Assembly: GCF_036507355.1 (NCBI RefSeq)
Contig: NZ_AP027877.1
Length of the DNA stretch: 64,000 bases
Direction: 5' to 3' (one strand)
Source of the DNA: Escherichia coli
GTDB taxonomy: Bacteria > Pseudomonadota > Gammaproteobacteria > Enterobacterales > Enterobacteriaceae
A program made the position numbers. Positions 60,001 to 63,000 of the stretch are shown piece after piece; positions within the stretch are counted from its first letter, which is position 1; each line of letters begins with the position of its first letter.

Positions 60001-63000
60001 CCTAATCGGCGGCGTCTGTATCGGCATCTTTAAATACAACCTGAGCGCCGACGCCGCCTTCCAGCAATATGTGCTGATGACCATCGGCGATGGGCTGGTG
60101 GCGCAGATCCCTTCCCTACTGCTCTCCACCGCGGCGGCGATTATCGTCACCCGCGTCAGCGACAACGGCGATATCGCCCATGACGTGCGCCACCAACTGC
60201 TGGCAAGCCCGACGGTGCTCTACACCGCCACTGGGATCATGTTTGTGCTGGCGGTGGTGCCAGGAATGCCGCACCTGCCGTTTTTGCTGTTCAGCGCCCT
60301 GCTTGGCTTTACCGGCTGGCGGATGAGCAAACGCCCGCAGGCGGCGGAGGCGGAGGAGAAAAGCCTCGAAACGCTAACCCGCACCATCACCGAAACCAGC
60401 GAGCAACAGGTCAGTTGGGAAACCATTCCGCTGATCGAGCCCATCAGTTTAAGCCTCGGCTTCAAGCTGGTGGCGCTGGTCGATAAAGCGCAGGGTAACC
60501 CGCTCACCCAGAGGATTCGCGGCGTGCGGCAGGTGATTTCCGACGGCAACGGCGTGCTGCTGCCGGAGATCCGCATTCGGGAAAACTTCCGTCTCAAGCC
60601 GAGCCAGTACGCCATTTTCATCAACGGCATTAAGGCTGATGAAGCGGATATTCCGGCGGATAAACTGATGGCCCTGCCCTCCAGCGAAACCTACGGCGAG
60701 ATTGACGGCGTGCTGGGGAACGACCCGGCGTACGGGATGCCAGTGACCTGGATCCAGGCGGCGCAGAAAGCGAAGGCGCTGAATATGGGGTATCAGGTGA
60801 TCGACAGCGCCAGCGTGATTGCCACCCATGTGAACAAGATTGTCCGCAGCTATATTCCTGATTTGTTTAACTATGATGACATCACGCAGTTGCATAACCG
60901 TTTGTCGTCGATGGCACCGCGCCTGGCGGAGGATTTAAGCGCGGCGCTCAATTACAGCCAATTGCTGAAAGTGTACCGGGCGCTGCTGACCGAAGGCGTT
61001 TCCCTGCGCGATATCGTCACCATCGCCACCGTGCTGGTCGCAAGTAGCACGGTGACCAAAGATCATATTCTGCTGGCAGCTGATGTGCGCCTGGCACTGC
61101 GGCGCAGCATTACCCATCCGTTCGTTCGCAAGCAGGAGCTGACGGTGTATACGCTGAATAATGAGCTGGAAAATCTGCTGACCAACGTGGTGAATCAGGC
61201 GCAACAGGGCGGGAAAGTGATGCTCGACAGCGTGCCGGTCGACCCGAATATGCTCAACCAGTTCCAGAACACGATGCCGCAGGTAAAAGAGCAGATGAAA
61301 GCGGCGGGGAAAGACCCGGTGCTGCTGGTGCCGCCGCAGCTTCGCCCTTTGCTGGCGCGCTATGCGAGATTGTTTGCGCCGGGGCTGCATGTGCTGTCGT
61401 ATAACGAAGTGCCGGATGAGCTGGAGTTGAAGATAATGGGGGCGCTGATGTAGGTATCCGGCATCGGTGCACAACCGCCGGATGCGGCGTAAACGCCTTA
61501 TCCGGCCTACCGTTCAGGCGCAGATTTGTAGGCATGATAAGACGCGCCAGCGTCGCATCAGGCATCCGCGCACAACCGCCGGATGCGGCGTGAACGCCTT
61601 ATCCGGCCTACGGTTGAGTGCAGTTTTGTAGGCATGATAAGACGCGCCAGCGTCGCATCAGGCATCTGCGCACAATTATGAAATGATACGCTCCCCGGCA
61701 CTAAAATCCGTTATGTCTCCCGCCCAACCAATGGGATATAACCCTCGCGCCACATCGCGATGGAACGTTGAGAATGGCCAATCACTCACTTGCTTTACCC
61801 AGCCATGTTTCACTGGATTTATATAAATATAATCAACATGATGTCGGTAATCTGTGGTATTGCGAATGGCATGCTCCCAAAAACGCGGTTGCCAGATATT
61901 TTTCAATCCGCAAGCATGGGTGAACTGCTTTTTAATCTCCCGCCAGCGAGAGGAAAAATCATCATCGCTTTCGGGTAATGTCCATATGCAATGCATATGC
62001 TCCGGCAAAACGACCCAGGCGTTAATTTCAAAAGGTCTGTCTCGCTTAACGTTAATAATGGCGTTACGGAGCGTCTGGAACTGGGTGGTCAGAAGATGGC
62101 TTCGACGATTCCGTAAATTTACCGTGAAAAACCATGTTCCCCCCTTGATGTAATACCGACGATATTCCGACATAGCGACTCCTTTTTCTCAACGGTAAGA
62201 GGAAAAGGAAAGGTCGGCAATGAGGTGATGGAATAACGGGAAAGCGGCTCGCAAAAACGCACAGATTTGTAGGCATGATAAGACGCGCCAGCGTCGCATC
62301 AGGCACCTGCGTACAACTGCCGGATGCGGCGTGAATGCCTTATCCGTCCTACAAAATCGTCTCTTCCGTCAAAATCCGTCGCGCGCCCAAAAAATGATCC
62401 TGCCAGAAAGGTTCAGCTAACCGACTTACCCGAATGGTTTCCCCGGTGCGCGGTGACTCAATAAACTGACCGTCGCCCAGATACACCCCCATATGGTCGG
62501 CAATCTCGCGGCTGTGGATATGGAAAAACAGCAAATCTCCCCGGCGCAGGTCGTTATTCGCCACAATCGTTGCCCGATGGTAGTGATACATCTCATTAGC
62601 CGTACGCGGGAGCTTCGCCTCGAGGATCTTGTTGTAGGCATAAAAAACCAACCCGCTACAGTCGAAGCCTTTATCGGGCCGCGTGCCACCCCAGACGTAA
62701 GGCTTGCCAAGCTGCTGCTCCAGGCGGTGAATCGCCACTTCGGTAATGTTATGCAGATGGTCGCTGCTTAAAAAGTGGTTGTTTTCCGCCAGCGCCTGCC
62801 AGCGTCTGTCACTCGCCTTGAGCGGCGCAGGAAACCATTCTGGATGCTGTTTTATCTGTTCGCGGTTGTGCTGGCGCAGCGCCCTTCTGCTTTCGGCATT
62901 GCCTTCCACAATATAGCTGGCCTGTTTTTTCAGATGGGTTTGGTACTGTTTTAATAAACGCGCACGGTTTTGCATCCGCTGGCGGGCGGCGTAGCTGAAA

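Follow-up and report, generated by a model that had tools for sequence, protein, structure and literature searches.

What is the gene that sits between two groups of REP/BIME hairpins in a 64-kb stretch of Escherichia coli DNA (the whole of which we call the window), and how do the hairpins beside it relate to those farther away? A sequence-only reading had taken the gene for a REP-associated tyrosine transposase bracketed by REP/BIME clusters in the canonical RAYT/REP arrangement, and had held that repeats of the same sequence class at two distant loci mark where these elements have spread. We conclude, with a probability of about 0.93, that the locus is the E. coli REPtron, i.e., a single-copy, fixed rayT with flanking y/z2 BIMEs, whose product is a domesticated nuclease. 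Nothing was found that contradicts this identification.

The gene and the ribosome-binding signal in front of it are as follows:

61676-62173, minus strand: rayT (tnpA_REP, formerly yafM), encoding a 165-aa HUH/Y1 single-strand DNA nuclease
62179-62183, minus strand: Shine-Dalgarno-like AGGAG, 5 nt upstream of the rayT ATG, read from the sequence

When compared with the NCBIfam equivalog model NF047646, "REP-associated tyrosine transposase," the rayT product scored 176 bits (cut-off 80, E = 3.8e-52), and it aligned end to end with chain A of PDB 4ER8, "TnpArep" (E = 4.5e-112), 156 of the 165 residues being the same (94.5%), which confirms the family that had been proposed. In the alignment to PDB 4ER8, the window RayT keeps H59-M60-H61, Y115, N119, H123, and E161, all residues with roles assigned in PMC3479197, while none of its nine substitutions (positions 26, 32, 34, 37, 41, 69, 107, 149, and 154) hits the DNA-contact residues named in the same paper (R46, R78, K81, K82, Q83, T85, H86, K91, and R97). 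The protein is full length, and its C terminus (...DFSAGERIIS) includes E161; it therefore has the auto-inhibitory C-terminal tail of ~25 aa, with E161, that IS200/IS605 transposases are without (PMC3479197). A Pfam-A scan of RayT returned no family at E ≤ 0.001, the Y1_Tnp model included; kinship with Y1 transposases is therefore drawn from the NCBIfam model, the solved structure, and published work. The gene is under purifying selection, with a dN/dS of 0.06-0.07 when set against three E. coli alleles of greater divergence and of 0.25 for the closest allele compared. A simple scan of the minus strand for a sigma-70 consensus promoter found none for rayT, and a promoter/terminator scan of 61400-62450 gave nothing usable for the gene. 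Binding and cleavage of single-stranded REP/BIME DNA have been shown for the K-12 protein only (PMC3333891, PMC3479197); from the 94.5% identity and the conserved contact residues, we infer that the window RayT would have the same activities.

REPs were located by a blastn-short census with three subtype consensus sequences across the 64-kb window. The census yielded 16 REPs in three clusters: eight at 4872-5232, two at 32756-32822, and six beside rayT (61477-61664 and 62269-62352). The REP foot motif CTTATCMKGCCTAC (with up to 2 mismatches) was found 17 times in the window versus 0.96 ± 0.97 times in shuffles, and the motif GCCKGATGCGRCG 33 times versus 8.3 ± 2.8. REPs are confined to these three clusters, two of the REP-bearing intergenic regions being the two sides of rayT, and all clusters are intergenic, overlapping stop codons at most. 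All 16 REPs are imperfect hairpins of the E. coli REP/PU family, and 15 of them have a 5' GTAG, the exception (5012-5046) reading GTGG. Folded as single-stranded DNA, they range from -6.8 to -12.2 kcal/mol (z -2.1 to -3.9), with the GTAG unpaired throughout; intact y and z2 REPs have an AA/GC-type internal loop, while in the z1 REPs and in a degenerate y REP (32756-32791), the bulge is an AA confined to the 5' arm. The Rfam model naRNA4, which was built from one y+z2 BIME unit, scores five REP pairs of the window above its gathering score. A weak REP-like match at 45970-45996 (25 bits) and scattered single-motif matches were treated as chance.

Around rayT, we distinguish the following elements:

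61450-61476, plus strand: REP remnant (weak call), GTAGGTATCCGGCA followed by the tail-to-tail-type linker TCGGTGCACAACC, read from the sequence
61477-61510, minus strand: y REP, outermost on the 3' side, 97% to the y consensus
61528-61564, plus strand: z2 REP (GCATG variant), 3' side, from the BLAST census and direct repeats
61578-61611, minus strand: y REP, 3' side, equal to the y consensus across the 34 nt aligned
61628-61664, plus strand: z2 REP (GCATG variant), closest to the rayT 3' end, from the BLAST census, direct-repeat family D1
62269-62305, plus strand: z2 REP of the 5' BIME, 37 nt, GCATG variant, antisense to rayT, from the BLAST census
62318-62352, minus strand: y REP of the 5' BIME (GTAGGACGGATAAGGCATTCACGCCGCATCCGGCA), 94% to the y consensus in the BLAST census

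The gene is thus bracketed as had been claimed, with four hairpins on its 3' side (y, z2, y, z2; 61477-61664) and two on its 5' side (z2, y; 62269-62352). The GTAG of every flanking y REP lies on the rayT coding strand and that of every flanking z2 REP on the opposite strand. The extent originally given to the feature, 61456-62345, was accurate to within a few bases and its clusters are real, but the right end is 62352, and 61456 falls within the remnant beginning at 61450, not in a full REP. This remnant consists of a REP head and tail, with the lfhA' stop codon within its GTAG; it can be aligned to the z2 tail plus linker of the unit that follows (family D1, 63%), and a sub-threshold naRNA4 match (61410-61507, 47.7 bits) covers its region.

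On the 3' side, the z2 REP at 61628-61664 has its tail 11 nt away from the stop codon of rayT, and naRNA4 matches the pair at 61531-61608 with 79.1 bits. On the 5' side, a 12-nt linker joins the z2 and y REPs tail-to-tail, and naRNA4 matches the pair at 62272-62349 with 65.1 bits; here, the z2 REP folds at -9.7 kcal/mol (z -3.3) and the y REP, which has an extra foot mismatch, at -6.8 kcal/mol as single-stranded DNA. The GTAG of this y REP includes the stop codon of yafL, whose ORF ends at 62349. Its sequence (GTAGGACGGATAAGGCATTCACGCCGCATCCG) is the homologue of the REP co-crystallized with TnpA_REP (GTAGGACGGATAAGGCGTTTACGCCGCATCCG; PMC3479197), 2 of 32 positions being different.

All six flanking REPs keep the GTAG, and all of their folds leave it unpaired and contain an internal 2x2 mismatch. 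As iREPs, the three z2 copies keep TGCC|TGAT and TGCC|TACA and the y copies GGCC|TAC or GTCC|TAC, i.e., the cleavage-site consensus sequences of PMC3333891 (section 15). The flanks also have the composition of BIME-2, a class that often forms tandem arrays: y and z2 are paired inversely, and the short linkers between them measure 16-17 nt (head-to-head) or 12-13 nt (tail-to-tail), spacings that also dominate in other Escherichia y-z2 pairs. The idea that the z2 variant GTAGGCATG is private to the REPtron was rejected: the exact 19-mer occurs in 45 genome stretches of Escherichia species, tandem arrays far from rayT among them.

Every cluster of the window includes the y subtype, with a Z partner that varies by cluster. 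All three Z elements beside rayT are the 37-nt GTAGGCATGATAAGACGCGCCAGCGTCGCATCAGGCA (z2), while all five at the distant loci are the 30-nt GTAGGCCTGATAAGCG(T/C)AGCGCATCAGGCA (z1), each form being seen in the window only there. We call the long form z2 on the basis of the text of PMC3333891 (REPtron = y + z2, "BIME II"), and this label is also backed by Rfam naRNA4/REP325, described as "Y and Z2" (PMC4550694), the naRNA4 consensus holding the long form; in conflict with this naming, the Figure 1 legend of PMC3479197 labels the rayT-flanking Z elements z1. The view that the distant loci carry the same sequence class therefore stands for y, which is found in all three clusters, but not for the Z subtype. 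At the family level, the distant REPs are of no different class, with y common to all clusters; in vitro, TnpA_REP accepts iREPs of the y, z1, and z2 types for cleavage (PMC3333891 section 15), and the three therefore still count as a single substrate family.

The two distant clusters are made up as follows:

4872-5232, both strands: cluster A, four tandem z1/y units with a period of 93 nt, between yahI (carbamate kinase) and yahG
4872-4901, 4965-4994, 5058-5087, and 5151-5180, minus strand: z1 REPs of cluster A
4919-4953, 5012-5046 (GTGG), 5105-5139, and 5198-5232, plus strand: y REPs of cluster A
32756-32822, both strands: cluster B, a tail-to-tail pair flanked by fbpC and mmuM, which are convergent
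32756-32791, plus strand: degenerate y REP of cluster B, 86% to the consensus, one indel
32793-32822, minus strand: z1 REP of cluster B, 1 nt from the y REP

Cluster A, with linkers of 17 nt head-to-head and 11 nt tail-to-tail, gives three naRNA4 matches at 78 bits. In neither cluster is the composition that of BIME-2, both combining y with the 30-nt z1 and having no z2; nor is either a BIME-1, a y + z1 element that occurs singly and whose long, conserved L linker holds an IHF site, cluster A being present four times with 17/11-nt linkers and cluster B having 1 nt. Under the definitions quoted in PMC3333891, both would count as "atypical BIMEs." With z2 lacking at both distant clusters, none of the copies in the window can be traced back to the rayT-flanking elements. 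The proposal that the window shows where the repeats have spread does not hold as regards recent spread. Cluster A is orthologous to the K-12 yahG-yahI ("yahH") array, with an equal four units in the K-12-like strain compared, and the length of the yahG-yahI region varies across strains by steps of about one unit. Cluster B lies in an accessory fbpC-mmuM segment, 99.9% conserved; only 752 of 5426 genomes have this segment, and it is often on a plasmid (322 of 770 places). Clusters A and B are old, orthologous or hitch-hiking sites and no fresh copies of the elements beside rayT.

Of 5426 complete E. coli genomes, 3574 have rayT, at a median of one place per genome, which agrees with the report of tnpA_REP in two-thirds of strains at a unique position (PMC3333891). 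The gene lies between yafL and a truncated lfhA/fhiA, with the same neighbors at all loci examined; the site and general architecture are shared by a K-12-like strain, A30, EC2641, SCPM-O-B-8794, and Escherichia sp. E1V33. The REP association was kept in every rayT+ strain examined, and the number of flanking BIMEs varies between almost all strains compared; in the published REPtron, one BIME lies 5' of the gene, and the number lying 3' of it varies (PMC3333891). Gene, yafL-lfhA position, and flanking BIMEs all match that REPtron, in support of the canonical RAYT/REP arrangement that had been suggested.

Of the complete E. coli genomes, about one in three has no rayT, many carrying hicAB in its place, and REP numbers are similar in strains with and without tnpA_REP (PMC3333891 section 13). 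These observations favor the view that RayT is a conserved passenger irrelevant to REP dynamics, REPs and BIMEs being host regulatory or structural elements (mRNA 3'-end stabilizers, attenuators, or gyrase/IHF/HU sites) whose copy number changes via slippage or homologous recombination. The periodic, near-identical 93-nt units at 4872-5232 would also be expected from slippage or unequal crossing-over, every cluster is located at the 3' end of genes or where two genes converge, which fits a role at transcript ends, and the BIMEs match an RNA family, naRNA4. Against a passenger stand the dN/dS values given above and the intact catalytic and DNA-contact residues, as well as the specific recognition and recombination of these sequences by the enzyme in vitro (PMC3333891, PMC3479197, PMC8266576) and the recurrence of RAYT-REP pairing across genera with co-varying REP types (PMC8266576). 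We therefore consider it unlikely that RayT is irrelevant to its REPs, although host roles for the repeats and a RayT-REP relationship are compatible and not mutually exclusive.

The allele in the window is itself divergent. Its nucleotide identity is 92.4% to K-12 and at best 96.2% among the 5426 complete genomes, its synonymous sites diverge by 0.27-0.44 from those of other E. coli alleles, and the rayT locus is ~91% identical to K-12. In contrast, pepD, at a distance of 6 kb, shows 100% identity to E. coli A30, and of the 5424 records it matches, all but one reach at least 95%. These pepD matches led us to reject a non-coli Escherichia as the origin of the window, an idea raised by the ~91% figure. 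Because of this deep divergence beside so well-conserved a gene, together with the variable number of flanking BIMEs, the REPtron could be a polymorphism of long standing or a place where recombination or mutation is locally frequent, perhaps through the action of RayT on its own flanking BIMEs in vivo, and no ordinary stretch of core genome, though we hold either to be decidedly unlikely.

Insertion sequences of the IS200/IS605 family occupy varying sites or occur in several copies, usually with tnpB. That rayT is an autonomous element of this family, its subterminal hairpins being REP-like by chance, is suggested by the nature of RayT as a Y1 HUH enzyme with the fold of IS608/ISDra2 TnpA (PMC3479197) and by the nearest REPs (61628-61664 and 62269-62305), which are same-strand direct copies, like the left- and right-end hairpins of IS200/IS605. 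However, there is one copy of rayT per genome, at a fixed yafL-lfhA site in thousands of genomes, and no tnpB-like ORF is present among the ORFs between the REPs. Moreover, the protein matches the RayT equivalog and no IS transposase model, Pfam Y1_Tnp included, and has the auto-inhibitory tail described above, while the flanking hairpins belong to the general REP family of the genome, found at hundreds of gene-free sites. Such an origin of the arrangement is thus very improbable. Mere coincidence, REPs being common in E. coli intergenic regions (16 in 64 kb, with REP-containing queries matching at least 10-59 places per E. coli genome), is effectively refuted by the conserved association, kept in all rayT+ strains examined and in other genera (PMC3333891, PMC8266576), with only three intergenic regions of the window holding REPs, two of them the sides of rayT, and with the enzyme binding the flanking 5' y REP in the crystal structure (PMC3479197).

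For the REPtron, the mechanism of RayT has been established in vitro and structurally with the 94.5%-identical K-12 protein (PMC3333891, PMC3479197), and by homology, the following would apply here. RayT is a domesticated HUH/Y1 nuclease, kin of the IS200/IS605 transposases, and its monomer would bind a REP as a single-stranded hairpin, reading the 5' GTAG base by base as well as the mismatched bulge of the stem. Y115, with a metal held by H59, H61, N119, and H123, would then cut at CT dinucleotides in the neighboring inverted REP or in the linker, with a 5'-phosphotyrosine link as the product, and the enzyme could rejoin the cut strands. Both strands would be substrates, because each BIME has one REP per strand, and the C-terminal tail, with E161, is predicted to occupy the active site and auto-inhibit the protein. 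In vivo, RayT may, as has been proposed, excise BIMEs, reinsert them, and multiply them in tandem around the chromosome.

Published work already covers the locus and the enzyme, with the structure of the latter and its chemistry in vitro, and the finding is correct but ordinary. Its value lies mainly in calibration: a call made from raw sequence was confirmed, its subtype claim corrected, and the distant clusters shown to be conserved or hitch-hiking sites and no evidence of recent spread.

The closest known system is the REPtron of K-12 MG1655 (tnpA_REP/rayT/yafM, b0228; PDB 4ER8; PMC3333891, PMC3479197), which has the same 165-aa gene, 94.5% identical and with the functional residues kept, at the same site between yafL and truncated lfhA, with y + z2(GCATG) BIMEs and y on the coding strand. 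The 3' sides are alike, with two y-z2 units each, while the 5' side of the K-12-like strain reads z2 z2 y, one z2 more than the z2 y of the window, and the crystallized 5' y REP differs from the window copy by two base changes.

With the TnpA of IS200/IS605 elements (IS608 and ISDra2), RayT shares the HUH motif and single catalytic tyrosine, the single-stranded hairpin with a 5' tetranucleotide, and the 5'-phosphotyrosine intermediate (PMC3479197, PMC8266576). Unlike them, RayT is monomeric with an auto-inhibitory C-terminal tail, and the GTAG is read by the protein and does not itself serve as a DNA guide. The rayT gene is single-copy and immobile, and REP hairpins are dispersed genome-wide without it.

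A further parallel is offered by the group 3 RAYT/REPIN systems. These systems (Pseudomonas and Stenotrophomonas; Nunvar 2010, PMC3116915, PMC8266576) share with the REPtron a single-copy RAYT flanked by inverted pairs of the REP type of its genome, and a REP doublet (REPIN/BIME) as the presumed mobile unit. Group 3 REPs, however, are short, perfect palindromes, whereas the E. coli group 2 REPs described here are 30-37 nt long with an obligatory mismatched bulge, and the recognition strategies of group 3 and group 2 RAYTs differ (PMC8266576).

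The 165-aa ORF between lfhA' and yafL is RayT/TnpA_REP, and it is flanked on both sides by REP/BIME elements, as had been proposed from the sequence alone. Its product scored 176 bits against the NCBIfam equivalog NF047646 ("REP-associated tyrosine transposase"; cut-off 80) and aligned over all 165 residues with PDB 4ER8 ("TnpArep"; E 4.5e-112, 156 identities); a Pfam-A search of the protein gave no family at E ≤ 0.001. All residues that serve catalysis and metal binding in the solved TnpA_REP (PMC3479197), i.e., H59-M60-H61, Y115, N119, H123, and E161, are kept, and none of the nine substitutions relative to 4ER8 (positions 26, 32, 34, 37, 41, 69, 107, 149, and 154) falls on a DNA-contact residue named in that study. 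AGGAG lies 5 nt upstream of the ATG. Since dN/dS was low, at 0.06-0.07 against the K-12-like, A30, and SCPM-O-B-8794 alleles and 0.25 against that of EC2641, the closest allele, rayT is maintained by purifying selection.

Two REP motifs are enriched in the window (17 occurrences vs. 0.96 expected, and 33 vs. 8.3). A blastn-short census of the 64-kb window, using three subtype consensus sequences as queries, located 16 REPs in three clusters, six of them beside rayT. Strand refers to that on which GTAG reads 5' to 3'.

REPs and genes of the rayT region and the two distant REP clusters
59714-61453, + strand, N-terminally truncated lfhA (lfhA'), left of rayT, with lafU' alongside
61477-61510, - strand, y REP, 3' side of rayT
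61528-61564, + strand, z2 REP, 3' side of rayT
61578-61611, - strand, y REP, 3' side of rayT
61628-61664, + strand, z2 REP, 3' side, nearest rayT
61676-62173, - strand, rayT ORF, 165 aa, between lfhA' and yafL
62269-62305, + strand, z2 REP, 5' side, nearest rayT
62318-62352, - strand, y REP, 5' side of rayT
62349-63158, - strand, yafL (NlpC/P60), adjoining the rayT region
4872-5232, both strands, cluster A, z1 (-) plus y (+) repeated four times with a 93-nt period, flanked by yahI (carbamate kinase) and yahG
32756-32822, cluster B, tail-to-tail degenerate y plus z1, 1 nt apart, between convergent fbpC and mmuM

On the rayT coding strand, every flanking y reads as REP and every flanking z2 as iREP (a REP read on the opposite strand), the two elements nearest the gene being direct z2 copies. 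Linkers measure 16-17 nt head-to-head and 12-13 nt tail-to-tail, the commonest spacings among y-z2 pairs at other Escherichia loci. Folded as single-stranded DNA, each REP has an unpaired GTAG and a lower stem of 7 bp, to which the intact y and z2 copies add a 2x2 mismatch and an upper stem; this is the shape required by TnpA_REP (PMC3333891, PMC3479197). All flanking iREPs retain intact TGCC|TGAT and (G/T)(G/T/A)CC|TAC, the cleavage consensus sequences of PMC3333891. The repeats run into the neighboring genes: the TAG of the 5' y REP (GTAG at 62349-62352) is the yafL stop codon, and lfhA' stops at the TAG of GTAGGTATCCGGCA (61450-61463). The latter looks like the remnant of an internally deleted REP, reduced to head plus tail and succeeded by an ordinary tail-to-tail linker, which explains why the sequence-only reading began its feature at 61456. 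Rfam naRNA4 (RF02564), a model derived from the y-linker-z2 BIME unit, exceeded its gathering threshold on five REP pairs (matches at 4922-5177, 61531-61608, and 62272-62349). Because it scores ordinary y-Z pairs, including y-z1 pairs 7 nt shorter than the model, a match marks the repeat family and is no evidence for a specific sRNA gene.

Given 94.5% identity to the K-12 protein, for which these activities are established, this RayT would be expected to bind folded single-stranded REP as a monomer via GTAG and the bulge, to cut CT sites of the iREP or linker in a Y115- and metal-dependent manner, to perform strand transfer, and to be auto-inhibited by its C-terminal tail. RayT-driven BIME excision, reinsertion, and tandem amplification in vivo are proposed but unproven in any system. 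The + strand shows negative GC skew across the whole window, so the - strand has leading-strand composition; by inference from this skew, the lagging-strand template would expose the REPtron (rayT plus flanking BIMEs) y REPs and, in the distant clusters, the z1 REPs.

Among 5,426 complete E. coli genomes, 3,574 carry rayT (median one copy), next to lfhA' and yafL where these are present, and many strains without it have hicAB at the site, in agreement with PMC3333891. Nine of 3,584 rayT places lie on records labeled plasmid, a surprise given the description of the gene as fixed in the chromosome. The arrangement is conserved across strains, with varying BIME number. This window has two y-z2 units 3' and z2 y 5'; the K-12-like strain, two units and z2 z2 y; A30 and Escherichia sp. 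E1V33, one unit and z2 y; and SCPM-O-B-8794 (NZ_JAATUR010000042.1, 1553-2599), y z2 y z2 y and z2 y z2 y. The 2012 survey (PMC3333891) described the 5' side as "invariably" a single BIME; this is not universal, since SCPM-O-B-8794 has two.

Divergence of the allele is the only mildly unusual point of the locus. The window belongs to E. coli (pepD, at 54854-56311, shares 100% identity with A30 and ≥95% with all but one of 5,424 matching records) and is reversed relative to K-12. The best nucleotide identity of rayT among the 5,426 genomes was 96.2%, and dS reached 0.27-0.44 against three of four other alleles (0.10 against EC2641). The lfhA'-rayT-yafL 3' segment (59700-62500) differs from K-12 and A30 by 4-10%, in contrast to pepD and to dinJ/yafQ, which follow yafL, at 98-100% identity. 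FHIPEP/FlhA profiles match the truncated lfhA' only beyond roughly profile position 100, and other genomes annotate this gene as a pseudogene. At 4-7 kb from rayT, 54228-57857 is virtually identical to A30; identity drops from 100% left of 57857-57858 to ~96% right of it, where yafN-yafO, a toxin-antitoxin pair occupying 752 bp in A30, is missing and yafP (57409-57861) abuts dinB (57858-58913) with a 4-nt overlap. This switch in identity suggests a recombination breakpoint at 57857-57858.

The sequence-only reading also placed the distant clusters in the same REP class as those at rayT. This held for y, common to all clusters, but not for its Z partner: Z elements adjoining rayT have a 37-nt form, GTAGGCATGATAAGACGCGCCAGCGTCGCATCAGGCA, and those at both distant clusters a 30-nt form, GTAGGCCTGATAAGCG(T/C)AGCGCATCAGGCA. 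Orientation is y (-)/z2 (+) at rayT and z1 (-)/y (+) in cluster A. Published naming of the MG1655 REPtron conflicts: the text of PMC3333891 uses y and z2 ("BIME II"), the legend to Figure 1 of PMC3479197 y and z1. We adopted the former because REP325 is described as Y + Z2 (PMC4550694) and the Rfam consensus built from it includes the long form; elimination then leaves z1 for the short one. The z2 foot near rayT carries a C-to-A change (GCATG for GCCTG) that adds a lower-stem mismatch. It occurs in all rayT-adjoining z2 copies of the K-12-like strain, EC2641, SCPM-O-B-8794, and E1V33, and in one of two in A30. The variant is not confined to the REPtron, its 19-mer being present in 45 stretches of Escherichia species genomes, tandem arrays among them. 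The Escherichia z2 variant also appeared on tiny contigs assigned to Gram-positives, JAIJJM010000828.1 ("MAG: Collinsella sp.", 1,310 bp; also carrying a rayT 95% identical to ours) and one of Terrisporobacter mayombei (449 bp), most likely through E. coli contamination or mis-binning.

The further proposal that the window shows where these repeats have spread was not borne out as regards recent spread. Nothing in the window indicates that a distant copy arose from the rayT-flanking REPs. The fbpC-mmuM segment around cluster B is 99.9% conserved, present in only 752 of 5,426 genomes (K-12 included), and plasmid-borne at 322 of 770 places; the pair therefore owes its location to mobility of the segment that carries it rather than to transposition of REPs within this genome. 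Together with tRNA-Thr(CGT) (thrW; 48400-48475, adjoining proA), the CP4-6 attachment site in K-12, and a low-GC stretch (0.443) at about 24000-32000, this plasmid-shared segment (~31.7-35.2 kb) suggests an integrated island left of thrW. Cluster A has an orthologous array in K-12, where it bears the annotation of a phantom gene, yahH, with four units in both. A 162-aa ORF (4836-5324, - strand) spans it, possible because the 93-nt period is in-frame; it corresponds to "yahH", still annotated as a protein in RefSeq genomes.

The identification of the rayT locus was correct, and the system is already published. As the in vitro cleavage activity of TnpA_REP extends to y, z1, and z2 iREPs (PMC3333891), all REPs in the window are plausible substrates. 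Between strains, the cluster A region differs in length by about one to three units, the kind of variation described for BIME arrays in general (PMC3333891). It differs both from BIME-1, a single copy with a long L linker, and, having z1, from the z2-containing BIME-2; being neither, it counts as an "atypical" BIME under the definitions quoted in PMC3333891.
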